Counted from the stretch's first letter, positions 5,082-21,562 are shown. The stretch: DNA of 64,000 bases from an uncultured Anaerolineales bacterium (GCA_964539385.1 CAZIJC010000001.1:16860-80859); one strand, 5' to 3'. Notes: generated from the sequence alone by a model not told the origin. Numbers and translations are program-made.

Positions 5082-5206
5082 CGTTGCAGCCTCCTTCAGC
5101 GTTTCTGTCTCACCCGGCCGGTCACAAGTGTGCCGTCGCGCCGTCCGCAGAGACGGGTATTCTATCAGCCCGGTACCGACTGTCAAGATAACGGCGGCTG
5201 GAGGCA

Positions 5207-5236
5207 ATTGACATCTGCCACCTGCCTCGCGTACGA
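5207..5236 (+). promoter_or_regulatory. Candidate sigma-70 promoter (TTGACA, 18 bp spacer, TACGAT) for the ferredoxin-terpenoid operon
   Basis: TTGACAtctgccacctgcctcgcgTACGAT lies about 200 nt upstream of the GTG at 5442, in the divergent region between gnd and the plus-strand operon. Confidence 0.3.
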
Positions 5237-5383
5237 TACAGTGAGTGACCGGCGGTCCACCGCCGCCCTCTCAGGCGGACGCATCTATTGTCGCAACCAT
5301 CCCGGCGAGATGGTCTGCCTGGACGTGCGGGGCAAGTGGCACGGTCGGCCGAGAAGATGAGCGACACTGCGAGCGGCCCGACG

Positions 5384-5421
5384 CCGTTTCGGGCCTCCCG
5401 AAAACGGGGGTTGATCTTTTT
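5384..5421 (+). other. Leader hairpin followed by a T7 tract (terminator-like or attenuator-like) in the 5' UTR of the terpenoid operon
   Basis: ccgTTTCGGGcctCCCGAAAacgg forms a stem; it is followed 9 nt later by tcttttttt. This is not a canonical intrinsic terminator geometry. Confidence 0.25.
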
Positions 5422-5441
5422 TTCGCGCAAAGGACTTTCAC

Positions 5442-6266
5442 GTGAGTTCGTCGCCTACCATACTTTACTGCAATTGCACGTACGGCGGCGCTGTGCCCCT
5501 CGACGTGCGAGAGGCCGTGTTGGAGGGGCTCGTGGCGTCGGGCGTGCCGTTCGAGCCGGTGGCCGACCTGTGCGAACTGGCCGCACGACGCGACCCGTCG
5601 CTGGAGCGCCTCGCCCGGTGCGACGACCTGCATGTCATCGCGTGCTATCCGCGAGCGGTCAGGTGGCTGTTCGCTTGCGCCGGTGCGCCGCTGGCCGACG
5701 GCGCCGTCATCCACAACATGCGCGAGCAAAGCGCGGACGACATCCTGGCTCATTTAGCCCCCCACACTCATTTAGCCCCCCGTGAAGACACCACTTATTT
5801 AACCCCCCGTGAACACACGGGGGGCAACCCCCAAACAACCCACAAGCCCCCCCAACCGACACCGACTTTCCCCGAGAGGCAGCCCGGCGAGTGGATCGCC
5901 TGGTATCCGGTCATCGACTACGACCGGTGCCGGAACTGCAAACAGTGCCTGGAGTTCTGCCTGTTCGGCGCGTTCGCGCTCGATGATGCCGGCACGGTCC
6001 GCGTCGCGGCGCCCGACCGCTGCAAACTGAACTGCCCGGCGTGCGCGCGGGTGTGCCCGGCGTCGGCCATCATCTTCCCGAAGTTCCGCGAGGGCGGCCC
6101 CATCGCCGGCAACGAGGGCGTGCTGACCGAATCGGCCGAAGAAGGCATAAAGGCCGACATCAAACGCCTCTCGAAAGGTGACGTCATGGACGTGCTCCGC
6201 AAACGCGCCGCTCGCGCCCGCGCCGAGGCCGCCAAAAAGCACTCGACGGAGCAACCCGACCGGTGA
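5442..6266 (+). CDS. 2[4Fe-4S] ferredoxin-domain protein with an N-terminal Cys-containing domain and a His/Pro/Thr-rich linker
   Basis: GTG start. C-terminal [11 protein letters not shown] and [13 protein letters not shown] are classic CxxCxxCxxxC(P) motifs. N-terminal [10 protein letters not shown] weakly resembles MvhD/FlpD-type domains. The linker is encoded by a short nucleotide tandem repeat at about 5750-5800. Its stop overlaps the next gene start (GTGA). Confidence 0.6.
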
Positions 6267-7834
6267 CCGCGTCCCTGAAACCCGCTGTCGTTCTCGTGGC
6301 CGACCGCACGCTCAGCGCGCGGTACAACGTGCTGTTCGAGGGCATCTTCGCCACGATGCAGACCACCCACGTCCCGGAAATCGCGATGCGGCGCCTCATC
6401 GCGCCGCAGACACACGTAGATTCGCACGGCCGTGCCCGCACCGTCCCGATCGGTCTGCGGCGCGTGGAATCGGCGCTGCTGGCCCGGACGCCGCTCACCC
6501 CGCGCGACGTCGTGTGCACCACCCCGGAAGCCCTGCCGCGGCTGCTCGGACCGTGGACGCGCCTCGTGGGCGTCAGTTCTTCCGACCCGCTCGGCCACGG
6601 CATGAGCAACACCACAACCACCCAGTTCTGGAAGGGCAGTCTGTACACCCGCGTCTGGACCGACCGGCTGATGCATAACCTGGCCGACGCCAGGCGCCGC
6701 TACAGGTTCCACATCGTCGGCGGCGGGGCCGGTGCATGGCAGTGGGTCCGGTACCCGCGGGAAGCGGCGCGCCACGGCCTCGATACCATTTTCGAAGGCC
6801 ACTTCGAAGACGACGGACCCGACACGTTCATGCAACTGGTGGGCGGCCAGGCGGCGCCGCCACACGTGGTCGCCTCTTCGTGCGCCACCGACCGCATTGA
6901 GCCCATGTGCGGGGCGTCGCTGCTCGGCGTCGTCGAACTCTCACGTGGATGCGGCAAAGGGTGCAGGTTTTGCGTCATGGCCCGCCAGAAGATGGAACAC
7001 CTGCCGGCCGAGACGATCCTGGCCGACGTCGAGACAAACCTGGCGGCCGGCGTCCGGTCGGTCGTTTCGGGCAGCGAGGATTTCTTCCGTTACGGCGCCC
7101 GGGGCCCGCGGGTTAACTTTGGGCGGCTGCGGTCGCTGCTGGAGCAGATGCGCAGGCTTCGCGGCCCCGGCTTCATGCAGATTAACCACGCGAACGTCTC
7201 GTCGGTCCTCCAGTTGGAGGAGGACGAACTCCGCGAGATCCGACGCCTGCTCGAGTGGGAAAGCAAGACGGATTACCTGTGGGTCAACCTGGGCGTCGAA
7301 AGTGCCAGCGGCCGCCTCGTCCATGCCAACGGCCCCGGCAAGATCGCCCCGTTTGACCCCGACGACTGGGAGGACATGGTTCACCAGACGGCCGACCGTT
7401 TGACCCGGACCGGTTTCTTCCCGGTCTTCAGCATCATTCTGGGACTGCCGGGCGAAACACCCGACGACGTGGACCGCACGCGCCGCCTGGTCGCGCACCT
7501 GGCCACCCGGCGGGTGGCCGTGTTCCCCGTGTTTTACGAGCCCGTAGGCGTCGGAGAACCCGCTGACGGCGAGCCGTTCGGCATCCCGGCGATGACCGAG
7601 CAGCACCTGGACCTGTACACGGCGTGCTACGAGATCAATTTCAAGTGGATTCCGCGGCTGTATTGGGATAATCAGAAGGCGGGAGGCGTCGGCCCGCTGA
7701 AGCGCCTCCTGGTCCAGGTGCTCGGACGGGCCGAGGTCCGCTCGTGGCGCCGCAACTTCGCCCGTGTCCGTCGCCGCATCGCCCAGCGCGATGCCCACGC
7801 CGCTGGGGCGCGAAAAAAGGGCGAGGCCGCTTAG
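6263..7834 (+). CDS. Radical SAM protein with an N-terminal Rossmann-like, B12-binding-like domain
   Basis: 523 aa. Cys triad in [13 protein letters not shown] (C-x3-C-x2-C). N-terminal AVVLVAD...[13 protein letters not shown] resembles cobalamin-binding domains of class B rSAM enzymes. GTG start overlaps the ferredoxin stop, indicating translational coupling. Confidence 0.6.
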
Positions 7835-7840
7835 CCGCGC

Positions 7841-7868
7841 GGTTAGCCGCCGGGCTTGCCCGGCGCGT
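7841..7868. repeat. REP-like GC-rich hairpin (CGCCGGGC-ttg-GCCCGGCG), copy 1
   Basis: ggttagccgccgggcttgcccggcgcg sits immediately after the rSAM stop. An identical 27-mer recurs at 13646-13672. Confidence 0.6.
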
Positions 7869-7908
7869 TACGTGACCCGCCCGTACGGGCGCATTATGAA
7901 GGATACCT

Positions 7909-9564
7909 ATGACCGCACCCCTCGAAACAACCGGCCCCCTTCACCTGCCGGAAGCGGCCAAACCGTCGGCGCCCAACCGCGACCAGGTTCCACAGGCCAA
8001 GGCCGAGCGCCGGCGATTGCGCGCCGCCGTCCGTGAATACGTCGTGACGCACCGGCCCGTGCCGCCGTTCACGATGGACGACCTGGCCCTGCATTCCGGC
8101 CGCGTGCTCGACGCCACCGGCGCCGACGAAAAGCACCGTAAATGGATCTCCGTCCTGATAAGCAACGCCGCCTGGCGTGACTGGGTCGCCGCCGTCCCGT
8201 TCGACCGTCGCCTGCTGCTCCTGCCGAAATGCCTGCGCGACGACCGCGACTGCGAGGGAACGTTCGACGAGTTCGGCCTGCTGTGCGCCGACTGCGGCCG
8301 GTGCCCCATCACCGACCTCAAGAACGAGGCCGAGGCCCTCGGTTACGTCGTTCTGATCGCCGAAGGCACACCCGCCGTCATATCGCTCCTGGAGACCGGC
8401 AGCATCGACGCCGTCGTGGGCGTCAGTTGCATGTCGGCGCTCGAGAGCGTTTACCCCTTGATGGAAGCCGCCGCCATCCCCGGCATAGCCATCCCGCTGC
8501 TGTACGACGGGTGTGTCAACACCGCCGTGGACCTGGACTGGGTGCGCGAGGCCATTCACCTGAACGGTGGCCCGGACCGGCCCCCGCTCGACCTCGACGC
8601 CCTCCGCCGCCAGGTTCAGTCCTGGTTCACCGCCGAGGCGCTCGACGAGGTGCTCGGACCGCCGACCGGCGAGACCCAGCGCCTTGCCCGCGACTGGCTC
8701 GCCCGGTCGGGCAAACGATGGAGGCCGCTGCTGGCCGTCTGCGCTTTCAAAGCACTCCAGGACGCGGCCGACGCACCGCTGCCGGAGGAAATCCACCGCC
8801 TTGCCCTGGCCATTGAGTGTTTTCACAAAGCGTCGCTGATTCACGACGACATCGAAGACGGCGACGACCTGCGCTACGGCCAGTTGACACTCCACAACGA
8901 ATATGGCCTGCCGGTGGCGCTGAACGTGGGTGACTTCCTGGTCGGCGAAGGCTACCGGCTCATCGCCGAGTCGGGCCGGCCGGCCGAAGAGCGGGCCGAG
9001 ATGCTGCTTGCGGCAGCCCACGGCCACCGCGACCTGACGATCGGCCAGGGCTCCGAACTGTGCTGGGCCCGCAAGCCCCTGCCGCTCTCGGTTGATGCCG
9101 TCATCGACATCTTCCGCCGCAAAACCTCCCCTGCCTTCGAGGTGGCGCTGCGCCTGGGCGCCATCGCCGCCGGCGCCCGCGACGAGGTCTGGGACGTCCT
9201 CCACCGTTGCAGCGAGGCACTCGGCATCGCCTACCAGATCGCCGACGACCTGAAGGACCTCAACAGTGACGACGGGCCGAGCGACGTGACCGCAATGCGT
9301 CCGTCGATACTGCTGGCCATCGCCTACGAGCAGGCCGGTGCAGGCGACCGCGAGTTTTTCGAGGCCGTATGGCGGCGGTCCTCCGATGCGCCGGCCGACG
9401 AGATCCGCCGGCGGTTCCGGGCCATGGGTGTCGAGGACGAGGCCCGCCGACTCCTTGAAGACTACGAAGACCAGGCCACACGATGCCTGCGACCGCTGAC
9501 CAGCACCGACCTGAAAAGCCTGCTCCGCCGCGTCGTTTTCAAGATCTTCCGTCGCCGGCCATGA
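7909..9564 (+). CDS. DUF116-domain::polyprenyl diphosphate synthase (trans-isoprenyl diphosphate synthase, trans-IPPS) fusion protein
   Basis: 551 aa, ATG with an AAGGA SD. The N-terminal ~270 aa carries a Cys cluster LLLPKCLRDDRDCEGTFDEFGLLCADCGRCP, consistent with DUF116. The C-terminal half has GKRWRP, the first Asp-rich motif LIHDDIEDGDD and the second Asp-rich motif YQIADDLKD. Small residues (A, S) at -5/-4 of the first motif suggest a product of C20 or longer. Confidence 0.7.
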   Translation: MTAPLETTGPLHLPEAAKPSAPNRDQVPQAKAERRRLRAAVREYVVTHRPVPPFTMDDLALHSGRVLDATGADEKHRKWISVLISNAAWRDWVAAVPFDRRLLLLPKCLRDDRDCEGTFDEFGLLCADCGRCPITDLKNEAEALGYVVLIAEGTPAVISLLETGSIDAVVGVSCMSALESVYPLMEAAAIPGIAIPLLYDGCVNTAVDLDWVREAIHLNGGPDRPPLDLDALRRQVQSWFTAEALDEVLGPPTGETQRLARDWLARSGKRWRPLLAVCAFKALQDAADAPLPEEIHRLALAIECFHKASLIHDDIEDGDDLRYGQLTLHNEYGLPVALNVGDFLVGEGYRLIAESGRPAEERAEMLLAAAHGHRDLTIGQGSELCWARKPLPLSVDAVIDIFRRKTSPAFEVALRLGAIAAGARDEVWDVLHRCSEALGIAYQIADDLKDLNSDDGPSDVTAMRPSILLAIAYEQAGAGDREFFEAVWRRSSDAPADEIRRRFRAMGVEDEARRLLEDYEDQATRCLRPLTSTDLKSLLRRVVFKIFRRRP

Positions 9565-9577
9565 GGAACGTCGCCCC

Positions 9578-10516
9578 GTGAGTCTGAGGCTCGACATGCT
9601 CCGGGCCGCTGCCAGGGCGCGACGCCTGCGTCCCGGCGCCGCCCGGGGCATCGCCCGTTTCCTCCAATCCTGTGCCATGTCCGACGGCGGGTTTGCCGGC
9701 CGCGGCGCTGCCAGCGACCTCTACTACACCGTCTTCGGGATGCAGGGTCTGGCCGCGCTCGGCCAAGCCCTGCCCTCACCCGCCGTCGAGTCCGCCGTCG
9801 AACCCGCCGCGGAAGCGGCGGGTCACGCCCATCCCGCAACGCTTCACTACCTGCGCCAATTCGCTGACGGCGCGTCACTCGACCTCGTGCATCTGGCCTG
9901 CCTGGCACGGTGCTGGGCCTTGCTGGGCGCCGACGAGCCGGCGCCCGACGTGCGGGCGGCCATCCTTAAACGCCTGGAGGCCTTCCGCTCGCCCGACGGC
10001 GGATACCACGCGACGCCGGGCGCCAACCGCGGCTCGGCCTACGCCGCGTTTCTCGCGCTCGGGGCGTACGAGGACTTCCAGACGCCACTGCCCGAGCCGG
10101 CCGCCCTGGTGCGAGGCGTGCGGGCGCTGCGCACCGACGGCGGCGGATACGCCAACACGCCGGGGATGCCACAGGGCTCAAGCCCCGCGACGGCGGCCGC
10201 CGTTGTCGTCCTCAACGAACTAGGCGAGACGGTCGGGCAAGACGTTATCGGCTGGCTTGCCGCCCAGATGCGCCCGGACGGCGGGTGGACCGCGATGCCC
10301 GCGGCGCCGGTCGCCGACTTGCTCTCGACGGCCACCGCCATCCACGCCCTCGCGGTCGCAGGCGCACCATTGGATGAAGGGAGAATCCCCTGTCTTCAAT
10401 TCGTTGAGAACCTCTGGTCCGGCGAAGGCGGCTTTCGCGGCCACGGCTTCGACGACCGACTCGACTGCGAGTACACCTTCTACGGGCTGCTTGCCCTGGG
10501 CCATCTGGCTGGCTGA
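9578..10516 (+). CDS. Prenyltransferase/squalene-oxidase repeat (alpha/alpha-toroid) protein
   Basis: 312 aa, GTG start 14 nt after the upstream stop. It has five xDGG[FWY] repeats (SDGGFAG, PDGGYHA, TDGGGYAN, PDGGWTA, GEGGFRG) typical of the prenyltransferase beta-subunit/terpene cyclase toroid. Its stop is 2 nt before the next ATG. Confidence 0.6.
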   Translation: MSLRLDMLRAAARARRLRPGAARGIARFLQSCAMSDGGFAGRGAASDLYYTVFGMQGLAALGQALPSPAVESAVEPAAEAAGHAHPATLHYLRQFADGASLDLVHLACLARCWALLGADEPAPDVRAAILKRLEAFRSPDGGYHATPGANRGSAYAAFLALGAYEDFQTPLPEPAALVRGVRALRTDGGGYANTPGMPQGSSPATAAAVVVLNELGETVGQDVIGWLAAQMRPDGGWTAMPAAPVADLLSTATAIHALAVAGAPLDEGRIPCLQFVENLWSGEGGFRGHGFDDRLDCEYTFYGLLALGHLAG

Positions 10517-10518
10517 CC

Positions 10519-12339
10519 ATGCCCATCGACCGACGTCGACTCCGCAAGACCCTCCACACCGCCCGGCACCACCTGCTGGCGCTCCGTACCCGCGAGGGCC
10601 ACTGGGAAGGTCAACTGGCCTCCAGCGCCCTTTCAACCGCCACAGCCGTCTGGGCCCTCCACGTCGTGGCCCAGAAAAAGGTACCAGGTCCCTTTTCGGC
10701 GCTCATTCGACGCGGCCTCGACTGGCTGGCAGACCATCAGAACCACGACGGCGGGTGGGGCGACACGCCACGCTCCAAGAGCAACCTGAGCACCACCATG
10801 CTCGCCTGGGCGGCCCTGGCAGCCTCCGGCGGCGCAGGCGCGCACGCGAAGGCCGCCGCCCGCGCCGAAGCGTACCTGGCGCGCGAAGCCGGCGGTCTCG
10901 AACCCCAGCGCCTGGCTCATGCTGCAGACAGATGCTACGGCAACGACCGGACGTTCTCCGCGCCGATCCTCACCATGTGCGCCCTCGCCGGGCGACTCGG
11001 CAACGGGCGCGAGGCGTGGCGGCACGTCAGACCCCTACCCTTTGAACTGGCCGTGTGCCCGCCCACGTGGTGGAAACGGCTGCGCCTGCCGGTCGTCAGT
11101 TACGCCCTGCCGGCGCTGATCGCCGTCGGCCAGGCGCGGTGCCACTTTCGCCCGCCCGTCTGTCCGCTGACGCGACTGGTGCGGCGCCTGGCGCGGCGGC
11201 CGACGCTGAAGCGGCTGCTCTCGCTTCAACCTGAGAGCGGCGGGTTCCTGGAGGCGACGCCGCTGACGAGTTTCGTCACGATGAGTCTGGCTGCCGTCGG
11301 CCAGGTTCACCACGAGGTCGTGGCCCGCGGTGCGGAGTTCCTCACCCGCTCGGCGCGTGACGACGGCTCCTGGCCCATCGACACGAACCTCGCCACCTGG
11401 GTGACCACGCTCGCGACGTGCGCCCTGGCTGCCGCACCCGACTTTACCACGGTGCTCCGGTCTGAGGATCGCCGGCGGATTCTCGACTGGCTCCTCGGCC
11501 AACAGTACCGCCGCGTCCACCCCTACACGCATGCCGCGCCGGGCGGATGGGCGTGGACCGACCTTTCGGGCGGGGTTCCCGACGCAGACGACACGGCCGG
11601 GGCCCTGCTTGCCCTCAGGCACTTGGCGCCCGACGACCCGCGCGCCCGCGAGGCCGCCCGAATCGGCGTCGCGTGGCTCCTCGACCTTCAGAACCGCGAC
11701 GGCGGCATCCCCACCTTTTGCCGCGGATGGGGCAAACTGCCGTTTGACCGCAGCAGCCCCGACCTCACCGCCCACGCCTTGGCCGCATGGACGGCATGGC
11801 GCGACGACCTGCCGCCCGACCTGGCCCGGCGCGTCCGCGCGGCGGCGGACCGGGCGCTCGCCTATCTGAAGGCGCAGCAGTCGCCGCACGGCGCGTGGGT
11901 GCCTCTCTGGTTCGGCAACCAGGACGCTCCGGGCGAAGCGAACCCCGTGTACGGCACGGCCCGTGTCGTGGCGGCCCTCGAGGCGCTCGAGCGAGACGGC
12001 AACGAGGTCGCCGGCCACATGAGGGCACGCGGGATGGCGTACCTGTTGTCGGCCCAGAACGAAGACGGCGGGTGGGGCGGCGCGGCAGGCGCCGCGTCGT
12101 CCATCGAAGAGACGGCCCTGGCGGTTTACGCGCTGGCTCGGGGGGCGGCTCGGGAGCGGACTCGGGCGGCTACCGAGCGAGGGGCGACGTGGCTCATCGA
12201 ACAGACCCGCGAGGGAACGGCCTTCGCGCCGGCGCCCATCGGACTCTATTTCGCCAAACTCTGGTACTTCGAGCGGCTCTATCCGGCGGTCTTCACGGTG
12301 GCGGCGCTGGAGCGCGTACGGGCGGCGGGTGACTCGTGA
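10519..12339 (+). CDS. Squalene-hopene cyclase family class II terpene cyclase
   Basis: 606 aa. DxDDTA catalytic motif (VPDADDTAGALLAL), QW-type repeats, and blocks aligning to SHC (SPDLTAHALAAW, QSPHGAWVPLWFGN, QNEDGGWGG). It is shorter than canonical SHCs of about 630-680 aa. Confidence 0.75.
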   Translation: MPIDRRRLRKTLHTARHHLLALRTREGHWEGQLASSALSTATAVWALHVVAQKKVPGPFSALIRRGLDWLADHQNHDGGWGDTPRSKSNLSTTMLAWAALAASGGAGAHAKAAARAEAYLAREAGGLEPQRLAHAADRCYGNDRTFSAPILTMCALAGRLGNGREAWRHVRPLPFELAVCPPTWWKRLRLPVVSYALPALIAVGQARCHFRPPVCPLTRLVRRLARRPTLKRLLSLQPESGGFLEATPLTSFVTMSLAAVGQVHHEVVARGAEFLTRSARDDGSWPIDTNLATWVTTLATCALAAAPDFTTVLRSEDRRRILDWLLGQQYRRVHPYTHAAPGGWAWTDLSGGVPDADDTAGALLALRHLAPDDPRAREAARIGVAWLLDLQNRDGGIPTFCRGWGKLPFDRSSPDLTAHALAAWTAWRDDLPPDLARRVRAAADRALAYLKAQQSPHGAWVPLWFGNQDAPGEANPVYGTARVVAALEALERDGNEVAGHMRARGMAYLLSAQNEDGGWGGAAGAASSIEETALAVYALARGAARERTRAATERGATWLIEQTREGTAFAPAPIGLYFAKLWYFERLYPAVFTVAALERVRAAGDS

Positions 12340-12427: not shown

Positions 12428-13624
12428 ATGAGACGACACGCCGCGCTTACCGCCTGCGTGGTGCTGGTCGTATGGTCGATGGGCTGCGAGCAGCCGGAGC
12501 CGCCCGCACCTGCGCCGGCATACGGCAAGATGTCACCCGACTGGCCGATGTTTCGCGGCGCCCCCGGCATGAGAAGCGTCGCAGAGGGCAATTTGCCCGA
12601 CGCGCTGACTCTGAAGTGGAAGTTCGAGACACAGGACGCCGTCCGCTCATCCGCTGCCATCGTCGGCGGCCGCGCCTTCGTCGGCTCCGACGACGCTCGC
12701 CTGTACGCCATCGATCTGGCCTCCGGCAAGATGGTCTGGGCCTTCAAGACCGACGACACCGTTGAGGCCTCGCCGCTCGTCCTCGACGGCGTCGTGTACG
12801 TCGGCTCATCCGACGGTTTCCTCTACGCCATCGACGCCGCCAGCGGCACGCTGAACTGGAAATACGAGACGGACGACAAGATCCTGGGCGCGGCCAACTG
12901 GACGACCTCGCCCGACGGCGGCCGCAAGTGGATCCTCGTCGGCGGTTACGACACGCGGCTGCACTGCGTCGAGGCTGCCGACGGCAAAGCCGTCTGGACG
13001 CTCGAGACCGCCAACTTCATCAACGGGGCCGCCGCCGTCTCGGCCGGCAGGACCGTCTTCGGCAGTTGCGACGCCCGGATTCACGTCGTCGGCGTCGCCG
13101 ACGGGGTAGAGATGGCGTCGATCGAGGCGGGTGCGTACATCGCCGGCTCGGCCGCCATGGCCGCCGGCCGCGTCTACGTGGGGCACTACGAAGGCGAACT
13201 CCTGTGCGCCGACCTGGCCACGTCCAAAGTCATCTGGCGGTACGGCGATGGCGAGGCCGCATTTTACTCCTCGCCGGCGGTCGGCGAGCGGACGGTTGTC
13301 ATCGGCGCTCGCGATCAGCGTCTCCATGCGGTGGACCGCGCGAGCGGCAAGCGCCTCTGGAGGTTCGCGACACGCGGCGACGTCGACTCCTCGCCCGTCA
13401 TCTGCGGCGACAAGGTCGTGGTCGGCTCGAACGACGGGCGGATCTACTTGGTGCGATTGGCCGACGGCAGGGAGGTCTGGTCGTTCGAGACGGGCAAACC
13501 CGTGTCGGCCTCGCCGGCGGTAGCGGCCGACCGCGTGGTCGTCGGCGGCGAGGACGGCGTCGTTTACTGCTTCGGACCCAAGAGCACCACGAGCACCGTG
13601 CGCCGAACTCTCCGTGGTTTGTAA
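12428..13624 (+). CDS. PQQ-like beta-propeller repeat lipoprotein (BamB-like family)
   Basis: Tool ORF 12329..13624. Internal start MRRHAALTACVVLVVWSMGC has a lipoprotein-type signal and a GGAGG SD 8 nt upstream. Repeated blocks like GSxDGxLYAxDaasGkxxW. Confidence 0.7.
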   Translation: MRRHAALTACVVLVVWSMGCEQPEPPAPAPAYGKMSPDWPMFRGAPGMRSVAEGNLPDALTLKWKFETQDAVRSSAAIVGGRAFVGSDDARLYAIDLASGKMVWAFKTDDTVEASPLVLDGVVYVGSSDGFLYAIDAASGTLNWKYETDDKILGAANWTTSPDGGRKWILVGGYDTRLHCVEAADGKAVWTLETANFINGAAAVSAGRTVFGSCDARIHVVGVADGVEMASIEAGAYIAGSAAMAAGRVYVGHYEGELLCADLATSKVIWRYGDGEAAFYSSPAVGERTVVIGARDQRLHAVDRASGKRLWRFATRGDVDSSPVICGDKVVVGSNDGRIYLVRLADGREVWSFETGKPVSASPAVAADRVVVGGEDGVVYCFGPKSTTSTVRRTLRGL

Positions 13625-13645
13625 GCAAAGCGCCGGCACACGTCT

Positions 13646-13672
13646 GGTTAGCCGCCGGGCTTGCCCGGCGCG
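13646..13672. repeat. REP-like GC-rich hairpin, copy 2 (identical to 7841-7868)
   Basis: ggttagccgccgggcttgcccggcgcg sits immediately after the stop of the PQQ lipoprotein gene. Confidence 0.6.
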
Positions 13673-13690
13673 TCTGCGATGGAGGTGACC

Positions 13691-14395
13691 ATGGCCGACA
13701 CACCGTCGCTGGTCAAACTCGAACACGTGACCAAGACGTACGAGACGCCCGGCGGCGAGCAGTTGACCGTCCTGGACGATGTCTCGCTGACCGTCGCCGG
13801 CGGTGAATCGCTCGCCGTCGTCGGGCCGTCCGGAAGCGGCAAGAGCACGCTCCTGAACATCATCGGGACACTCGACCGCCCGACGAGCGGCCGCGTGCTG
13901 CTCGACGGCCTGGACCTGTCGCACCTGACCGACGACGACCTGGCCGCCATCCGCAGCGGCCGCATCGGGTTCGTCTTTCAGTTGCATCACCTGCTGCCGC
14001 AGTGCACGGCCCTGGAGAACGTTCTGGTGCCCGCGATGGCCGGGGGCGGCGCGGTGAGCCCGCAGAGGGAGCAGCGCGGGCGGCAGTTGCTCCAGCGCGT
14101 GGGCCTCTCGGACCGTATGGCGTACCGGCCGGGACATCTCTCGGGCGGCGAGCGGCAGCGGGTGGCGGTGGCGCGGGCACTCATCAACGAGCCGACGCTG
14201 CTCCTGGCCGACGAACCCACCGGGTCGCTCGACCGGGCGGCGTCGGAGAACCTGGAGGAGTTGCTCGTGGAACTCAACCGCGAGGAAGGCGTCACGCTCA
14301 TCGTCGTCACGCACGCCGCGGCGCTGGCGGCGCACATGGCGCGGGCGATGGAACTTCGCGACGGCCGCCTCGAACGCCTGGAACAGACGGGATGA
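13691..14395 (+). CDS. ABC transporter ATP-binding protein (LolD/MacB family)
   Basis: Walker A motif GPSGSGKST, signature LSGGERQRVAVARAL, Walker B LLLADEPT. Start ATG 13691 has a GGAGGTGA SD. Confidence 0.85.
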   Translation: MADTPSLVKLEHVTKTYETPGGEQLTVLDDVSLTVAGGESLAVVGPSGSGKSTLLNIIGTLDRPTSGRVLLDGLDLSHLTDDDLAAIRSGRIGFVFQLHHLLPQCTALENVLVPAMAGGGAVSPQREQRGRQLLQRVGLSDRMAYRPGHLSGGERQRVAVARALINEPTLLLADEPTGSLDRAASENLEELLVELNREEGVTLIVVTHAAALAAHMARAMELRDGRLERLEQTG

Positions 14396-14399
14396 GTCC

Positions 14400-14472
14400 C
14401 GCGCGGTGGGCAATCCTGCCCACCGCGCGTGCCGTATCGTAAAGGCGCGGCGGGCAGGATTGCCCGCCGCGC
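14400..14472. repeat. Pair of near-identical 12-13 bp-stem palindromic hairpins in opposite orientation (BIME/REP-like) between the ABC ATPase and permease genes
   Basis: Hairpin 1 is cgcgcggtgggca-atcc-tgcccaccgcgcg (14400-14429). Hairpin 2 is gcgcggcgggca-ggat-tgcccgccgcgc (14445-14472). The loops are reverse complements of each other. Confidence 0.6.
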
Positions 14473-14484
14473 GGGGACTGGGTC

Positions 14485-17400
14485 ATGAACCTTCGGACAC
14501 TGGTGGCGCGGAGCCTGCGGTTCCACTGGCGAAGCCACCTGGGCGTCGTCCTGGGCGCCGCGGTGGCCACGACGGTTCTGGTCGGGGCGCTGGTGGTGGG
14601 CGACTCGGTCCGCTGGAGCCTGCGTCGGATGGCGCTGGCGCGGCTGGGCGAGACGGACCGTGCACTGGTTGCGTCGGAGCGGTTCTTCCGCGCCGCCCTT
14701 GCCGCGCAACTTTCTACTGCGGTTCGCGCCCCGGCGGCCGCCGTGTTGCAGGTGCGCGGCATGGCGGCACGCGAGGACGGGGCGGCCCGAGTCGGCGATG
14801 CCCAGGTGCTCGGCGTCGATGGCGGCTTCTGGGCAATGGGCGACCTGCAGCCGCCGCTCGCCGCCGGCGCAAAAGCCGCCGCCGTCATCAATGAGCGCTG
14901 CGCACGGGCGCTTCGCGTCAGGGCGGGCGACCGGATCTTCGTGCGGTTCGCAAAGCCGACCGCGGTCTCGCTCGACGCGCCCCTTTCGGGCGAGTCCGAG
15001 CGGGCGGAGGGGTTCCATCTGCCGGTGGCATTCGTGGCCCCCGACTCAGGAGTCGGCCGCTTCAGCCTCGCCGCCAACCAGGTGCCGCCCTACAACGTCA
15101 TCGTGCCGCTGGCGTGGCTCCAGGACCAACTCGACCTGGCGGGCAAGGCCAACGTCCTGCTGCTGGGCGCGCCGGCGCCCGGCAAGGGTGGATCGAGCGC
15201 GTCCGGCGCATTGGCCGAGAAGTTCCAACTCGCGGATGCCGAACACGAGGTCCGCTCCGTGCCCGGCCGCAACACGGCGGAACTGCGCACCAGCCGCGTC
15301 TTTCTCGACCCGCCTGTGGTGCGGGCGGCGGCTGAGGCCAACCCTGCCGCCGTCGGCGTCCTGACGTATCTGGTGAACGAACTCCGTGTAGGCGACCGGA
15401 CGACGCCGTACTCGATGGTCACGGCCATCGGTCCGCTAAGCGCCGGCGAAGAGTCGGCCAAAGGCGAATCGGTCGCGGGTCTGCTTCCAGGCAACATGGC
15501 CGACAACGAGATCGTCATTAACACGTGGCTGGCCGACGACTTGGGCGCCAAGGTCGGCGACGAACTTACTCTTGTCTACTTCGTGCCTGGGCCCATGCGG
15601 AAGTTGGAGACGCGGTCGAGCACGTTTCGCATCCGCGCGGTCGTGGCCATCGAAGGCGCGGCCGCCGACCGCACGCTAACGCCTGATTTCCCGGACCTTT
15701 CGGACATCGATAACTGCCGCGACTGGAGGCCAGGCTTCGAACCCGACTACGATAAAATCCGGACGAAGGACGAACAGTATTGGGATGACTACCGCGGCAC
15801 ACCGAAGGCGTTTATCACACTGGCAGCAGGGCAGCGGATGTGGAAGAACCGTTTCGGCGACCTGACGGCGGTACGCTTCCCGGGCATGAGCAAGGCCGAT
15901 GCCGAAGGCGCCATCCTGGGCCGCCTCCGGCCGGCGGCGCTCGGTTTCTTCTTCCAGCCGGTCCGCAAGCAGGCCCTTGCGGCAAGCGGCCAGGCCATGG
16001 ACTTCGGCCAACTGTTCCTGGGCCTGAGTTTTTTCCTCATCATCGCAGCGCTGGTGCTGACGGGCCTCTTGTTCGCTCTCGGCGCCGAGCAGCGGGCCGA
16101 AGAAACGGGCGTGCTGATGGCGGTCGGATTCCCGGCAAAGCGGGTGCGGCGGCTCATGCTGGCCGAGGGCGGGACGCTGACGCTCATTGGCGCCGTCGTC
16201 GGGACGGTCGGCGGCGTCGCGTACACGCGGCTGGTTCTCTGGGGTCTGGCCACGGTGTGGCAGAGCGCCGTCGGGGCGTCGGACATCGTGTACCACGGGT
16301 CGAGCACCACGCTGCTGGTGGGCGGCGGGGCGGGCGTCATCGTGGCTCTGCTCGCGATCTGGCTGACGTTGCGGCGGCAGGCTCGGACCCCGGCTCGCGA
16401 ACTCCTGACGGCGGGTGCGGATGCCCAACGGCGGGTCGGCCTGCCGCCGGGTGTGCGGCCGCTGCTGGGCTTGGGGCTGGCCTTGGCGTGCGCCCTCGGG
16501 GCGGCGATCCTGCTCATCGTCATGGGCTCCGCCAAAGGGCGGGCCCAGGCGGGCGTGTTCTTCGGCGCCGGGGCGCTGCTGCTGGTGGCGGGCCTCGCCC
16601 TGTGCCACGCGGCGCTGGCGCGGATGGCCGCATCGAGCGAGCGGCGGCGCCTGTCGCCCGTCGGCTTGGGCCTGCGGAACGCCACGCGGCGACGTGGCCG
16701 GAGCCTGGCAACCATCTCGCTGGTGGCGTTCGGGGCGTTCCTGGTCGTCGCCATCGGCGCGAACCGGCGGCCGCCGGTTGAAGATGCCGGTATCCGGTCG
16801 TCGGGCACGGGCGGCTTCCGGCTTTGGGGCCAGGCCACGCTGCCCGTCCATCACGATCTGCTGAGCAAGGACGGCCGCACACAATATGCCCTGCCGGACG
16901 ATCTGCCCCAGAAGGTGACCGAGATTGTGCCGATGCGGGTACACGAAGGCGACGACGCCTCGTGCCTGAATCTGAACCGCGTCCAGAGGCCGCGCCTGGT
17001 GGGCGTGCAGCCGGAGATGCTCGCGCATCGCAAGTCATTCACGTTTGCCGAGACGCTCGGGCAACTTGAAAAAGGCGAAAACGCATGGATGCTGCTCGCA
17101 AAGCGCGACCAGCCGGACGTCGTGCCGGCCATCGGCGACGCCGCCACCATCCAGTGGTCGCTCGGCAAGCAGGTCGGCGACGAGATGGCCTACACCGACG
17201 GCCGTGGCCGCGAGTTCCGGCTGCGCCTCGTCGGCGCGCTGGCCGGGTCGATCCTTCAGGGGTCGCTCCTCATCTCGGAGGAGGCGTTTCTGGAGCGGTT
17301 CCCATCCGAGAGCGGCTACCGCATGCTTTTGATTGATACGCCGCCTGAAAACACGAAAGAGGTCTCGGGAATCCTCTCGAAACAACTCGCCGACGTGGGG

Positions 17401-17835
17401 CTTGCCATTACGCCGACGGCCGACCGGCTGGCCGAACTGGCCGCCATGCAGAACACGTACCTGGCCATCTTCCAGACGCTCGGCGCACTGGGCCTGTTGC
17501 TGGGGAGCGTCGGCCTGGGGGTCGTCGTTCTGCGGAACGTTCTGGAACGGCGCGGGGAATTGGCGCTGGCGCGGGCGGTGGGCTTTCGGACACGGTCGCT
17601 CGACTGGCTGGTCCTGGCCGAGCACTGGGGCCTTCTGGCCATGGGCCTCGTCTGTGGCGTCGTGGCAGCCCTGGTCGCCGTGGCGCCGGTGATCTGGTCG
17701 GCAGCAGCGGCGGTGCCGTACCTGTCGCTGTCGGCGACGCTGGCGGCGGTGGCCGGAAGCGGCGTGCTGTGGACGTGGCTCGCCACGCGGTTCGCGCTTC
17801 GCGGCCCGCTGCTGGCAGCGTTGCGGAACGAATAG
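14485..17835 (+). CDS. ABC transporter permease with two FtsX-like domains and large extracytoplasmic domains (MacB-type, 1116 aa)
   Basis: N-terminal TM MNLRTLVARSLRFHWRSHLGVVLGAAV. Two four-helix FtsX-like blocks at about residues 500-650 and in the C-terminal 150 residues. It follows the ATPase gene. Confidence 0.7.
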   Translation: MNLRTLVARSLRFHWRSHLGVVLGAAVATTVLVGALVVGDSVRWSLRRMALARLGETDRALVASERFFRAALAAQLSTAVRAPAAAVLQVRGMAAREDGAARVGDAQVLGVDGGFWAMGDLQPPLAAGAKAAAVINERCARALRVRAGDRIFVRFAKPTAVSLDAPLSGESERAEGFHLPVAFVAPDSGVGRFSLAANQVPPYNVIVPLAWLQDQLDLAGKANVLLLGAPAPGKGGSSASGALAEKFQLADAEHEVRSVPGRNTAELRTSRVFLDPPVVRAAAEANPAAVGVLTYLVNELRVGDRTTPYSMVTAIGPLSAGEESAKGESVAGLLPGNMADNEIVINTWLADDLGAKVGDELTLVYFVPGPMRKLETRSSTFRIRAVVAIEGAAADRTLTPDFPDLSDIDNCRDWRPGFEPDYDKIRTKDEQYWDDYRGTPKAFITLAAGQRMWKNRFGDLTAVRFPGMSKADAEGAILGRLRPAALGFFFQPVRKQALAASGQAMDFGQLFLGLSFFLIIAALVLTGLLFALGAEQRAEETGVLMAVGFPAKRVRRLMLAEGGTLTLIGAVVGTVGGVAYTRLVLWGLATVWQSAVGASDIVYHGSSTTLLVGGGAGVIVALLAIWLTLRRQARTPARELLTAGADAQRRVGLPPGVRPLLGLGLALACALGAAILLIVMGSAKGRAQAGVFFGAGALLLVAGLALCHAALARMAASSERRRLSPVGLGLRNATRRRGRSLATISLVAFGAFLVVAIGANRRPPVEDAGIRSSGTGGFRLWGQATLPVHHDLLSKDGRTQYALPDDLPQKVTEIVPMRVHEGDDASCLNLNRVQRPRLVGVQPEMLAHRKSFTFAETLGQLEKGENAWMLLAKRDQPDVVPAIGDAATIQWSLGKQVGDEMAYTDGRGREFRLRLVGALAGSILQGSLLISEEAFLERFPSESGYRMLLIDTPPENTKEVSGILSKQLADVGLAITPTADRLAELAAMQNTYLAIFQTLGALGLLLGSVGLGVVVLRNVLERRGELALARAVGFRTRSLDWLVLAEHWGLLAMGLVCGVVAALVAVAPVIWSAAAAVPYLSLSATLAAVAGSGVLWTWLATRFALRGPLLAALRNE

Positions 17836-17933
17836 CCGGCCGGCGGGTTCAATCTCCCGGGAAAGCCCGCGCACCGCGCCGCACGGGTTGATTTCGCAGG
17901 GGTCCGGGGGTACGATAGTGCGGAAGCGAGACG

Positions 17934-17971
17934 GGGTCAGGCCCTTCCGAGACGGGGGCTGACCCTTTTTT
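17934..17971 (+). terminator. Rho-independent terminator-like hairpin with T6 tract
   Basis: GGGTCAG-(18 nt loop)-CTGACCC followed directly by TTTTTT. It lies about 100 nt after the permease stop and only 13 nt before the next ATG. Confidence 0.45.
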
Positions 17972-17983
17972 GCGGGGAGCCGT

Positions 17984-19420
17984 ATGAAGGCCTTTCTTCT
18001 GAGAGCGATTCCGGTCACCCTGGCGCTTGCGGGCATCCTGTCCGTGACGCTGTGGCTGAGGGCCACGCCGGCGTACGATCTGAAGAGGCGGACCGAGGTG
18101 GCGGGCCGGGGCGGGCTCCGGAAGGTGGAGGTCTCGTTCCCCGGAGACTTCCAGGCCGGCGACGGCCAACCGGCCGACCTGCGCGGTTCCTGGCCGCGCT
18201 TCCGCGGCGCCCGCTATGACGCCGTCAGCACGGAGGCCGTCCGGTTGGCCCGCACGTGGCCGCAGGGCGGGCCCAAGGCGCTGTGGAGCATCCCCGTGGG
18301 CATCGGGTACGCCGGGCCGGCGGTCAACCGCGGCCGCGTGTACCTGCTGGACTACGATGAAACGAAGGAGGCCGACACGCTGCGGTGCCTGTCGCTGGCC
18401 GACGGCGCCGAGATCTGGCGGCGATGGTACCAGATCCCCACCGTCAGCGATCACGGCATCTCGCGGACCGTCCCGGCCGTGACCGACCGGTCTGTGGTGA
18501 CGTTCGGCCCGAACTGCCACGTCATGTGCGTCGATGCCGAGACGGGCGACTTCCGCTGGGGCATCGACCTCGTGAAGGAGTACGGGGCCAGGGTGCCGAA
18601 GTGGTACGCCGGCCAGTGCCCGCTGATCGACGGCGGCCGGGCCATCCTTGCCCCGGCCGGCAAAGACGTCCTGATGATGGCCGTCGAGTGCGAGTCCGAC
18701 GGGGTGGTGGCCTGGAAAACGCCGAACCGTCGCGGCTGGAAGATGACCCATTCCTCGATCATCCCGATGGACTTGGGATCCTGGCGGATGTACATCTATT
18801 GCGCCAGCGGCGGCGTCGTTGGCGTGGCCGCCGAGGACGGGCCGGGCCACAAGGCCGGCGACGTCCTGTGGGAGTGCCCCCAGTGGCAGGTCCGTTTCGC
18901 CAACGCTCCGAGCCCCGTCGTCATCGGCGGCGGGCACGTGCTGCTGTCGGGCGGGTACGGCAGCGGCAGCATGATGATCCGAATCGTCGAGGAAGGCGAA
19001 GGGCTTGCCTGCAAGGTGGTTTGGCGGCTGGAGAAGTCCGGCCAGTTCGGTTCCGAGCAGCAGACGCCGCTGTTCTACAACGGACACATCTTCGGCGTTC
19101 TTCCGAAGGAGGCGCGGCCGCTCGGCGAGCAACTCATCTGCATGGACCTGGAGGGCAAACACCTCTGGACAAGCGGGCGGGCGAACCGGTTCGGTCTCGG
19201 CTCGTACATGATCGCCGATGGGCTGATCTTCGTGATGGATGACGAGGGCCTCTTGACGCTGGCCGAGGCCACGGCCGAAGGTTACAAACCGCTCGCCCGG
19301 GCCAAGGTGCTCGACGGGCACGAGACGTGGGCGCCGCTGGCCATCGCGGGCGGACGGCTCCTCGTTCGAGATCTGAAGAGGCTGCTCTGCCTGGACGTGC
19401 GCAAGGCGGGCCGGGAGTAG
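17984..19420 (+). CDS. PQQ-like beta-propeller repeat protein with N-terminal signal anchor
   Basis: 478 aa. N-terminal hydrophobic segment, then repeated propeller blades (GRVYLLDYD, VTFGPNCHVMCVDAETGDFRW and others). Confidence 0.65.
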   Translation: MKAFLLRAIPVTLALAGILSVTLWLRATPAYDLKRRTEVAGRGGLRKVEVSFPGDFQAGDGQPADLRGSWPRFRGARYDAVSTEAVRLARTWPQGGPKALWSIPVGIGYAGPAVNRGRVYLLDYDETKEADTLRCLSLADGAEIWRRWYQIPTVSDHGISRTVPAVTDRSVVTFGPNCHVMCVDAETGDFRWGIDLVKEYGARVPKWYAGQCPLIDGGRAILAPAGKDVLMMAVECESDGVVAWKTPNRRGWKMTHSSIIPMDLGSWRMYIYCASGGVVGVAAEDGPGHKAGDVLWECPQWQVRFANAPSPVVIGGGHVLLSGGYGSGSMMIRIVEEGEGLACKVVWRLEKSGQFGSEQQTPLFYNGHIFGVLPKEARPLGEQLICMDLEGKHLWTSGRANRFGLGSYMIADGLIFVMDDEGLLTLAEATAEGYKPLARAKVLDGHETWAPLAIAGGRLLVRDLKRLLCLDVRKAGRE

Positions 19421-19425
19421 CGGAC

Positions 19426-20388
19426 ATGGCACAGTGGAAACCGAGCGGCCTGGGGCCGGAGTTCACGTACGACCTGACGGAACTCAAGAAGGTCGATCCG
19501 GCGCTCATCCACTACGAGCAGGCCGCATCCGTGCCGACCGGCATGATGAAGCCGAAAGGCATCGCCGTCGGCGCAGACGGGCACCTGTTCGTCGCAGGCG
19601 ACGGGGGCGTGCGGGTGTTCGACCCCGCGGGCAAAACCGTCTTGCAGTTCGACGCCTCAAGGTTCGGAATTGCTAAAGGGGTGTTCGACGCCGCCGGCAA
19701 ACCCGTCTTGCAGTTCAAGACGGGCGGCGAGCCGCACTGCATCGCCCTCGGCAAGACCGGCACGGTTTACGTCGGGATGAAAGACCACGTCGAAGTGTAC
19801 GACGTATCGCTCAAACGCACGGCCGCATGGAAGGGCCTGGGCGAGAGAGCATACGTGACGAGTGTGGCCGCCGGCGAGGCCGACGTGTTCGTGGCCGACG
19901 CCGGCAACCGGGTGCTGCTGCGGTACGATACGTCGGGGAAGTTGCTGAACCGAATCGGCGAGGAAGATGCCGCGAAACATGCCCCGGGTCTCGTTGTGCC
20001 AAGCCCGTACTTCGACGTGGCCCTCGGGCCGGAAGGGATGCTGTGGCTCACCAACCCCGGTCGGCGGCGCGTGGAGTGCTACACGTACGACGGTGCGTTT
20101 CGCTTCGCGTGGGGGAAGTTCTCGATGAAGATCGAGGGCTTTTGCGGATGCTGCAACCCGACGCACCTGGCCATCGACACCGACGGCAACTTCATCACCA
20201 GCGAGAAAGGACTGCCGCGCGTCAAGGTGCACGACGACGAGGGTAACTTCAAGAGCGTCGTGGCGGCGCCCGCCGACTTCGCCGACGGCACCGTGGGTCT
20301 GGACCTGGCGGTGGACGCGAAAGGGCGAATCCTGGTGCTCGACCCCAAGCGGCGCGAGGTGCGCATCTTTGTGAAAAAGCGATCGTGA
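19426..20388 (+). CDS. NHL/YVTN-type six-bladed beta-propeller repeat protein
   Basis: Tool ORF 19327..20388. Start at MAQWKPSG (ATG 19426) is 5 nt after the upstream stop. There are six repeats of the [VI]A.(D/G).G..[FY]V.D type. It contains the unusual run GFCGCCNP. Confidence 0.55.
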   Translation: MAQWKPSGLGPEFTYDLTELKKVDPALIHYEQAASVPTGMMKPKGIAVGADGHLFVAGDGGVRVFDPAGKTVLQFDASRFGIAKGVFDAAGKPVLQFKTGGEPHCIALGKTGTVYVGMKDHVEVYDVSLKRTAAWKGLGERAYVTSVAAGEADVFVADAGNRVLLRYDTSGKLLNRIGEEDAAKHAPGLVVPSPYFDVALGPEGMLWLTNPGRRRVECYTYDGAFRFAWGKFSMKIEGFCGCCNPTHLAIDTDGNFITSEKGLPRVKVHDDEGNFKSVVAAPADFADGTVGLDLAVDAKGRILVLDPKRREVRIFVKKRS

Positions 20389-20977: not shown

Positions 20978-21562
20978 ATGCCGACAGACAACGCCACCGA
21001 CACCACGATCACCCGCCGCAACCTGTTCCGCAAAGGCGGTCTGGCCGCCGGCGCAGCAGTTGTGACCGGGACGGCCGCCGCCCTGGCTGCAAAAGGACGC
21101 TCGGACGGAACGGTCTGGCAGATCGATCCGGAAAAGTGCATCCAGTGCGGCAACTGCGCGACGTACTGCGTGCTGGACCCGAGCGCGGTCAAGTGCGTGC
21201 ACGCGCTCAAACTGTGCGGCTACTGCGACCTGTGCTTCGCCTACTTTTCGCCGGGCTTCGAACCGGAAGCCGGCATCGAGGTGCCCGCCGTCGAGAGCCA
21301 GTTGTGCCCGACCGAGGCCATCAAGCGGCGCTGGATCGAAGGACCACACTACGAGTACACCATCGACGAGGAACTGTGCATCGGGTGCGGCAAGTGCATC
21401 AAGGGATGCAACAATTTCGGCAACGGCTCGCTCTTCCTCCAGGTCATGCACAACCGCTGTGTGAACTGCAACGAGTGCTCCATCGCCGAAGCGTGCCCGT
21501 CGGATGCGTTTCAGCGCGTGCCCGCCGACCACCCCTACCTTCTGAAAGGCGAGGACCACTAA
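20978..21562 (+). CDS. Tat-exported 4Fe-4S ferredoxin-type protein (NapG/MauM-like)
   Basis: TRRNLFRKGGLAAGAAVV is a twin-arginine signal. Four Cys clusters are present (CIQCGNCATYC, CGYCDLC, CIGCGKCIKGC, CVNCNECSIAEACP). Confidence 0.7.
   Translation: MPTDNATDTTITRRNLFRKGGLAAGAAVVTGTAAALAAKGRSDGTVWQIDPEKCIQCGNCATYCVLDPSAVKCVHALKLCGYCDLCFAYFSPGFEPEAGIEVPAVESQLCPTEAIKRRWIEGPHYEYTIDEELCIGCGKCIKGCNNFGNGSLFLQVMHNRCVNCNECSIAEACPSDAFQRVPADHPYLLKGEDH

Follow-up and report, generated by a model that had tools for sequence, protein, structure and literature searches.

What does a cyclase of the squalene-hopene cyclase (SHC) family act on when its gene is packed together with genes for iron-sulfur (Fe-S) proteins and for a polyprenyl diphosphate synthase? 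The question is raised by a 64,000-nucleotide (nt) stretch of DNA from an uncultured Anaerolineales bacterium (GCA_964539385.1 CAZIJC010000001.1:16860-80859; hereafter the window), in which five plus-strand genes encode, in order, a ferredoxin, a radical S-adenosylmethionine (SAM) enzyme, a fusion of a DUF116 domain with a polyprenyl diphosphate synthase, a stand-alone α/α toroid protein and the cyclase. A first-pass annotation, made from the sequence alone, had singled out these genes as a non-canonical terpenoid operon. The analysis presented here indicates that they form one real, translationally coupled operon, and we judge it probable, at roughly 60%, that this operon encodes an oxygen-independent, non-squalene pathway to a cyclic polyprenoid lipid, built around a cyclase of the published “SHC-like” clade.

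The gene content of the locus can be observed directly. The window has a GC content of ~68% and is for this reason rich in open reading frames (ORFs), but third-position GC values of 0.81-0.85 mark the five genes as real (Table 1), in agreement with a direct reading of their junctions. The stop and start codons of the ferredoxin and radical SAM genes overlap in the GTGA at 6263-6266, and the toroid and cyclase genes meet in TGAccATG (10514-10521), both as proposed in the first-pass annotation. The near-overlap that it described between the fusion and toroid genes is also present (TGA 9562-9564, GTG 9578), with a true gap of 13 nt rather than 14, and a 74-nt gap between the radical SAM and fusion genes (7835-7908) has to be added to its description. 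The junctions thus bear out a single, tightly packed unit in one transcription direction. Its beginning had been misplaced: position 5207 is the end of the divergent gnd gene, and the ferredoxin gene starts at GTG 5442. Pfam finds every domain that had been named, and none of the five genes is a pseudogene: all align over their full length to homologs that are 40-95% identical, including the radical SAM and DUF116 genes, whose integrity had been singled out for checking. The closest named relatives are Phycisphaerae.

The cyclase holds a γ and a β domain, with both the N- and the C-terminal cyclase domains detected by Pfam, and its DADDTA motif is intact (residues 355-360, nt 11581-11598). The best match among solved structures is the SHC of Alicyclobacillus acidocaldarius (AaSHC, PDB code 1gsz; E-value 3e-24 with the single sequence and 1e-32 with the family profile), with an alignment that covers residues 10-128 and 236-591; lanosterol synthase scores 1e-14 with the same profile. 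Counterparts of AaSHC D374/D376/D377, H451, Y495 and W312 are kept in this alignment, and aromatic residues at SHC F363/F365 and the C-terminal aromatic motif are also present. By this measure the catalytic apparatus is retained. Residues ~140-260 form a segment that is specific to the family and extremely conserved, and an invariant Cys lies in the family motif PTFCRGWG. Since the 606-residue protein alone covers both SHC domains, the earlier idea that it and the 312-residue toroid protein are the two parts of a split cyclase does not hold.

We asked whether the cyclase could be an ordinary hopanoid SHC that happens to have unrelated neighbors. Its homologs number in the thousands and are ~60% identical across phyla; some are named “squalene--hopene cyclase” in databases, and the DxDDTA motif is that of the family. 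However, the protein reaches only 104.8 bits against the SHC equivalog model TIGR01507, about a quarter of the cutoff of 431.1, and 148.3 bits against TIGR01787, the squalene/oxidosqualene cyclase subfamily model with a cutoff of 322.7. The single-sequence match to AaSHC is likewise modest for an SHC, and the neighboring genes are conserved across phyla. No gene for squalene synthase (or hpnCDE), hpnH or hpnG was found among the called ORFs of the window, and the recurrent neighbors in 80 related loci include neither a squalene synthase nor an hpn gene. An ordinary hopanoid SHC is effectively refuted by these observations: as judged from its sequence, the cyclase is not a hopene cyclase, and the locus is, as first proposed, not a canonical hopanoid one.

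The cyclase most probably belongs to a clade which is already named in the literature, and for which a non-squalene precursor has already been proposed; both points had escaped the first-pass annotation. Santana-Molina et al. (2020) described “SHC-like” cyclases of Planctomycetes which keep the catalytic residues and whose genomic context suggests a non-squalene precursor (PMC7306690), and the substrate of this SHC-like or “Unk” clade has been called a key unknown (PMC12324236). We base the assignment on taxonomic range, on length (606 residues, within the 550-700 of the clade), on the catalytic residues that are kept and on the pattern of model scores.

The company that the cyclase keeps is conserved as well. 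A scan of GTDB with one genome per species detected the cyclase in at least 585 species genomes, from Planctomycetota, Verrucomicrobiota, Acidobacteriota, Sumerlaeota, Hydrogenedentales and Armatimonadota, with the cultured Planctomycetaceae bacterium SH248 among the carriers, as well as a Gemmataceae metagenome-assembled genome. We compared the 80 related loci by tblastn and clustering of all ORFs; 52 of them include at least 5.5 kb upstream of the cyclase gene and are informative about gene order. Upstream of the cyclase gene, these contain the toroid gene (29/52), the DUF116::synthase gene (27/52) and the ferredoxin gene (26/52), and in 31 loci a radical SAM gene, belonging to either of two types, is present somewhere. 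The survey that the first-pass annotation had called for returned the same five-gene order in 21 of the 52, from Planctomycetota, Verrucomicrobiota, Acidobacteriota and Hydrogenedentales. The recurrence of this order in several phyla means that the arrangement is not due to chance. A cluster that includes DUF116, IspH, SHC, radical SAM and polyprenyl synthase genes has also been listed for a Bipolaricaulota isolate (10.1101/2025.11.21.689855).

The operons come in two types. Type A, with the architecture of the window and its 523-residue radical SAM enzyme, is found in Phycisphaerae, Sedimentisphaerales and some Planctomycetia. Type B, found in Acidobacteriota, Planctomycetaceae, Verrucomicrobiota and Hydrogenedentales, has a 396-421-residue SPASM/NirJ-like radical SAM enzyme for which BLASTP detects no homology to that of type A. 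It adds a GcvH-like H-protein (with the lipoyl-lysine invariant in 18/18 sequences), a CobW-type GTPase with a GCxCC motif, a ~130-residue protein, and a cysteine desulfurase similar to IscS, NifS and DndA. These fuller operons (L043, 3225-12951; L013, L027, L047, L053, L062, L066, L070 and L090, among others) carry the extra genes in four phyla, and that of L090 is a ten-gene version with overlapping genes. Candidatus Uabimicrobium amorphum (L085) mixes the two: its radical SAM gene is that of type A, and its H-protein and CobW genes are those of type B. Proteins of thiol-disulfide chemistry adjoin the cyclase in lineages which have the remainder of the cluster elsewhere: a DCC1-like thiol protein does so in L007, L011, L019, L024, L051, L056, L075 and L079, and a DUF6132-thioredoxin, together with MarR, in L029, L030, L033, L045, L046, L052 and L054. 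Many Verrucomicrobia have only a DCC1-like thiol oxidoreductase or a deaminase beside the cyclase; in Sedimentisphaerales, genes for a MarR regulator and a thioredoxin are added.

The substrate of the cyclase is presumably linked to the product of the synthase with which its gene is conserved. The fusion protein consists of a DUF116 domain (residues ~68-216; PF01976, 112 bits, above the cutoff) and a trans-polyprenyl diphosphate synthase domain (residues ~259-492; PF00348, 140.5 bits with a cutoff of 27). Both Asp-rich motifs, DDIED (residues 313-317, nt 8845-8859) and DDLKD (residues 446-450, nt 9244-9258), are intact and conserved across 37 orthologs, so that the dedicated polyprenyl diphosphate synthase of the first-pass annotation stands, as a kept partner of the cyclase. 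No NCBIfam equivalog model reaches its cutoff with the synthase. In the same orthologs, small Ala/Ser residues occupy positions -5/-4 before DDIED, which disfavors a farnesyl diphosphate (FPP) synthase and argues against FPP only. The DUF116 domain has seven conserved Cys residues, including those of CADCGRC (nt 8284-8304), and is a probable Fe-S or thiol redox module. One further, stand-alone DUF116 match (P0155) was set aside, as its context is unrelated and it is probably a broken gene.

A geranylgeranyl diphosphate (GGPP) synthase beside a DxDD class II cyclase is the classic layout of bacterial diterpene clusters, and we therefore considered that the synthase makes GGPP, that the cyclase turns it into a bicyclic, copalyl-like diphosphate and that the radical SAM enzyme tailors the product. 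The small residues before DDIED resemble those of type III GGPP synthases, and class II cyclases of 500-540 residues (PDB codes 7xq4 and 8zg1) are among the single-sequence PDB matches of the cyclase, at 1e-14. With the family profile, however, the smaller class II cyclases score ~1e-12, far behind the 1e-32 of SHC, and a “triterpenoid-type” γ domain is found in the SHC-like clade (PMC12324236). The recurrent neighbors include no class I terpene synthase, P450 or other usual tailoring gene, and the ~60% identity over several phyla and hundreds of genomes suggests a core function in lipid synthesis more than a patchily distributed cluster for a secondary metabolite. We regard a diterpenoid cluster as unlikely.

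Electron transfer may fall to the protein encoded by the first gene. The C-terminal half of the Fe-S protein is a dicluster ferredoxin domain for two [4Fe-4S] clusters (residues 156-210). It is preceded by a previously unannotated domain of ~100 residues, here called “u132” (residues 1-105, window 5442-5760), which has no Pfam match and contains four invariant Cys residues in the pattern CxC ... DLC ... ACYPRA...LF...NMR. This domain is homologous to the separate ~130-residue protein of type B operons, with the four Cys residues common to both, and the ferredoxin of the window is therefore a two-domain fusion; the public gene call for the contig, which belongs to JGI metagenome 3300008517, has 248 residues and cuts off the four-Cys domain. 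Related loci keep the ferredoxin gene immediately before that of the radical SAM enzyme, which agrees with the earlier description of a radical SAM enzyme with its own ferredoxin. The pair is, like the synthase, conserved together with the cyclase.

In the type A radical SAM enzyme, a Rossmann-like domain at the N terminus is followed by a radical SAM core (PF04055, 41 bits) with the motif CGKGCRFC (residues 230-237, nt 6950-6973) and by a long C-terminal helical region. It had been described as class B-like. Its fold may be of this kind, with the B12 methylase MgmA as the nearest structure, but the B12-binding domain PF02310 has no Pfam match; an hhalign comparison with a B12-binding radical SAM protein encoded elsewhere in the window (Table 1) likewise aligned the core only. 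In fold, the enzyme is just as near to two methylthiotransferases, RimO and MiaB, which are the best PDB sequence matches. We rejected a methylthiotransferase assignment: the N-terminal domain is without the three-Cys site for the auxiliary cluster, with only C85 conserved there.

With this many Fe-S proteins, could the operon replace squalene synthase itself? The DUF116 protein, the radical SAM enzyme or both could reductively couple two polyprenyl diphosphates, from which the cyclase would make a hopanoid-like polycycle. Sqs and HpnCDE genes are missing from the vicinity of a cluster that encodes many Fe-S and reductant proteins, and the existence of SHC-bearing anaerobes without known squalene synthases has led to the suggestion of undiscovered precursor pathways (PMC7306690). 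Such a route would be without precedent, none of the proteins has sequence similarity to any head-to-head prenyl-coupling enzyme, and a minimal variant of the locus does without the radical SAM gene. As the idea is also entirely inferential, we consider it quite improbable.

The toroid protein matches Pfam Prenyltrans (PF00432, 46.2 bits with a cutoff of 26.5), and its gene, next to that of the cyclase in 29 of the 52 loci, typically stops 3-60 nt before the cyclase start. hhalign aligns it to the cyclase family with a probability of 86%, which places its DLLSTA (nt 10316-10333) opposite DADDTA. DLLST is nearly invariant in 27 orthologs, and D296, E298 and Y299 are invariant. We rejected the toroid both as an additional catalytic cyclase and as one part of a split enzyme, since DLLSTA replaces DADDTA and the cyclase is already a complete didomain protein; the replacement argues that the toroid is an accessory protein. 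We consider it an extra and probably non-catalytic partner, and a cyclase “augmented” by it, as also suggested in the first-pass annotation, is possible. An unusual density of substitutions at the SHC-type dimer surface has been reported on the stem of the SHC-like clade (PMC12324236), and such an altered surface fits a new partner such as the toroid.

Searched against the PDB, the toroid family profile finds the β subunits of protein prenyltransferases first (Rab geranylgeranyltransferase β, 2e-9; farnesyltransferase (FTase) β, 5e-8, level with class II cyclases at 5e-8), and D296 aligns with the FTase β zinc ligand D297. This raises the possibility of a prenyl-transfer system, in which the toroid would attach the chain to a thiol or a protein, possibly the lipoyl H-protein, and the cyclase would act on the attached chain in a meroterpenoid-like manner. 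The H-protein with its invariant lipoyl Lys, the IscS-like desulfurase, the DCC1-like oxidoreductase and thioredoxin, all of which recur around the cyclase, would suit such chemistry, and the sister clade of the SHC-like group cyclizes meroterpenoid polyprenyl chains (PMC12324236). The Asp-Cys-His zinc site is incomplete, however: the Cys is only ~60% conserved, and the protein ends ~50 residues before the position of the His, the third ligand. No α-subunit-like gene was seen and the operon in the window has no H-protein, which leaves prenyl transfer very improbable.

We thus return to the oxygen-independent, non-squalene polyprenoid pathway, for which gene content, intact motifs and conservation are shown, and step order, chain length and chemistry are what we infer. 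The broad interpretation of the first-pass annotation was right, with a sesquarterpene-like or onoceroid-like product as its own suggestion. The synthase domain would make an all-trans polyprenyl diphosphate with a chain of at least 20 carbons. This chain would be processed, or electrons supplied, by the DUF116 domain together with the ferredoxin, with its four-Cys domain and two [4Fe-4S] clusters, and the class-B-like radical SAM enzyme would modify an unactivated carbon, with C-methylation as our leading guess; together, the Fe-S module of ferredoxin, DUF116 and radical SAM proteins could carry out a reductive or C-H functionalizing step before or after cyclization. The cyclase would protonate the terminal isoprene unit to form the rings, with the DxDD-less toroid as its substrate-binding or structural partner, and a MacB-type ABC (ATP-binding cassette) system encoded downstream may export the lipid.

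Several observations weigh against this scheme. Two non-homologous radical SAM families share the slot between the ferredoxin and DUF116::synthase genes (window 6263-7834; L043 6148-7338), the minimal variant (L082/L083) consists of H-protein, ferredoxin, cyclase and DUF116::synthase genes only, with no radical SAM or toroid gene nearby, and many Verrucomicrobia, as well as Ca. Uabimicrobium, have the cyclase gene apart from the others. The radical SAM step could thus be optional or lineage-dependent, and the interchangeable enzymes and the minimal variant suggest that it is tailoring rather than core. The scheme leaves the H-protein, CobW and IscS-like desulfurase of the fuller operons unexplained; dedicated Fe-S maturation, a dithiol reductant, or donation of one-carbon units or sulfur are possible roles. 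The nearest PDB relatives of the synthase range from FPP to decaprenyl enzymes and do not assign a chain length, the DUF116 domain has no solved homolog or informative structural neighbor in the PDB and its metal content is inferred from cysteines only, and the placement of the cyclase in the SHC-like clade rests on taxonomy, length and score patterns rather than on a tree.

A more specific proposal, which we advance as doubtful, is that the conserved module anaerobically cyclizes polyprenyl chains with a regular head-to-tail linkage, and that the products are membrane polycyclics of the tricyclohexaprenol or polycyclic-polyprenoid type. Tricyclohexaprenol is treated in the literature as the parent of the tricyclic terpanes. 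The tricyclohexaprenol hypothesis is reportedly Ourisson's. In the literature that we searched, we found neither this gene combination nor a biological source of tricyclic terpanes. If the proposal were true, tricyclic terpanes (cheilanthanes) and related orphan biomarkers would have their long-sought biological source in bacteria that are abundant in sediment and soil (Planctomycetota, Verrucomicrobiota and Acidobacteriota), and isoprenoid metabolism would gain a new Fe-S enzyme in DUF116.

The surroundings of the operon were analyzed in the same way. Upstream, a consensus scan of the leader (5208-5441) returned a sigma-70-like promoter match at 5208-5237 and a terminator-like hairpin followed by a T-run at 5392-5412, 30 nt upstream of the ferredoxin start. 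We dropped a riboswitch or attenuator as an explanation: the leader has no Rfam match, its fold z-score of -1.14 is not significant, and it is absent from a relative with 73% identity (L087), so that we take the region to be a promoter region only. The hairpin and T-run are not kept in relatives. Downstream, a block of envelope genes (12428..20388) recurs beside the cyclase cluster in five loci (L022, L076, L077, L087 and L088) and, rearranged, in the verrucomicrobial L055; its carriers are several Phycisphaerae, one Planctomycetaceae and one verrucomicrobial locus, and one relative inserts a GT4 glycosyltransferase gene. The block is possibly associated with the operon, with a link weaker than that among the five core genes, and lipid export by its ABC system may be a reasonable, if weakly supported, extension of the pathway.

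A 28-nt hairpin element with a 6-bp stem and a CUUG loop occurs in two exact copies in the window, where none is expected by chance. Its core is found at the matching two junctions in a relative with 83% identity (L088; 2076-2091 and 7953-7968), with diverged flanks. The element could act as a hairpin in the processing or stabilization of RNA, or as an operator that links the two gene blocks, and hints at shared regulation or RNA processing.

Table 1 Features of the operon and its surroundings in the window (positions counted from the first nucleotide of the window).
Feature	Position	Strand	Length	Evidence and remarks
gnd gene, divergent	3666-5207	-		Precedes the five-gene set
Divergent intergenic region and leader	5208..5441	+		Between gnd and ferredoxin gene
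Fe-S protein/ferredoxin gene	5442..6266	+	274 aa	Pfam Fer4_7/Fer4_6; third-position GC
Radical SAM “type A” gene	6263..7834	+	523 aa	Pfam; third-position GC
Hairpin element, copy 1: GGTTAGCCGCCGGGCTTGCCCGGCGCGT	7841..7868	+	28 nt	Radical SAM/synthase gap
DUF116::polyprenyl synthase fusion gene	7909..9564	+	551 aa	Pfam; third-position GC
Stand-alone α/α toroid gene	9578..10516	+	312 aa	Pfam Prenyltrans; third-position GC
SHC-like class II terpenoid cyclase gene	10519..12339	+	606 aa	Pfam SQHop_cyclase_N and SQHop_cyclase_C; third-position GC
Lipoprotein, PQQ-like β-propeller	12428-13624	+		Likely start ATG 12428; lipobox WSMGC; 88 nt after cyclase gene
Hairpin element, copy 2: GGTTAGCCGCCGGGCTTGCCCGGCGCGT	13646..13673	+	28 nt	Between lipoprotein β-propeller gene and ABC ATPase gene
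LolD-like ABC ATPase	13661-14395	+		Pfam, NCBIfam
MacB/FtsX-type permease	14485-17835	+	1116 aa	Ten helices; Pfam, NCBIfam, transmembrane scan
Second β-propeller	17984-19420	+		Pfam, NCBIfam
NHL-repeat protein	19426-20388	+		Pfam, NCBIfam
Protein with faint “Frankia_peptide” match	within 41964-48188		496 aa	
Genuine B12-binding radical SAM protein	43503-44981			Within 41964-48188 cluster
UbiA-family prenyltransferase, borderline	46271-47170			Within 41964-48188 cluster

Further away, redox genes of an anaerobe type lie at 20978-29279 and 49365-49907. They encode two polyferredoxins, a fused NuoE/NuoF-like protein of 790 residues, a 2Fe-2S/Fer4_20/pyridine-nucleotide oxidoreductase and, for hydrogenase maturation, a HycI protease. 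An anaerobic host is probable, and such proteins around the operon are consistent with oxygen-free chemistry. A second possible lipid or natural-product cluster (41964-48188; Table 1) also holds genes for a DegT-type aminotransferase and a HAD hydrolase. An 870-residue protein encoded at 39057-41669 has a hydrazine-synthase-α middle domain (PF18582) in a non-anammox context, and at 61004-64000 a tandem of three HSP20 genes precedes a Lon protease gene that is cut off where the window ends.

The substrate and product of the SHC-like clade are a stated open problem, the answer to which would constrain the evolution of hopanoid and sterol cyclases (PMC12324236), and solving the chemistry of the clade could tie new lipid biomarkers to specific bacteria (PMC7306690). 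The window and its relatives contribute a defined minimal gene set of ferredoxin, radical SAM enzyme, DUF116::synthase, toroid and cyclase, and the existence of such a dedicated set explains why simply expressing the cyclase without its partners and offering it squalene would probably fail. They also provide leads: DUF116 as a probable redox partner of isoprenoid synthesis, unrelated radical SAM enzymes that are interchangeable, and the unexpected link to H-protein, CobW and cysteine desulfurase. Cultured carriers exist (Planctomycetaceae SH248, Ca. Uabimicrobium amorphum and, according to the literature, Gemmata), which makes genetics feasible.

How does the operon compare with known systems? 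It shares with the SHC-like/“Unk” clade its taxa, in the Planctomycetes-Verrucomicrobia-Chlamydiae (PVC) group and Acidobacteriota, as well as protein length, catalytic residues, divergence from SHC and a non-squalene context, and no feature of the cyclase contradicts membership. To this clade we add the two radical SAM types, the DUF116 Cys pattern, the DxDD-less toroid and the extension with H-protein, CobW and IscS genes, an operon anatomy that is not described in the main text of PMC7306690 or PMC12324236. With A. acidocaldarius SHC and the hpn loci it has in common the β-γ didomain, the DxDDTA acid, residues that match H451, Y495 and W312, and an aromatic motif at the C terminus; it differs in lacking hpnCDE/sqs, hpnH and hpnG and in having a dedicated head-to-tail polyprenyl synthase.

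Among cobalamin-dependent radical SAM methylases, MgmA and, as a functional analogy, the hopanoid methylases HpnP and HpnR are the systems to compare with the radical SAM enzyme, which, however, has no detectable B12-binding signature and no sequence match to HpnP or HpnR, and which is swapped in other lineages for an unrelated SPASM-like radical SAM enzyme. The Lon15/AtoE epoxy-polyprenyl cyclases, the reported nearest clade, cyclize head-to-tail polyprenyl chains; they need an O2-derived epoxide, whereas the operon has a full DxDD acid, no epoxidase and an Fe-S-rich context of an anaerobe type. In the C35 sesquarterpene pathway of Bacillus (HepS/HepT, YtpB and SqhC), as proposed here, a polyprenyl diphosphate synthase supplies a non-squalene chain to an SHC-family cyclase. 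The operon has no YtpB-like class I enzyme and its cyclase lies outside the SqhC group, and the intermediate steps would here fall to the Fe-S, DUF116 and radical SAM proteins. The operon thus fits the known pathways that pair a class II cyclase with a prenyl synthase, with an unusual complement of Fe-S, radical SAM and DUF116 proteins.

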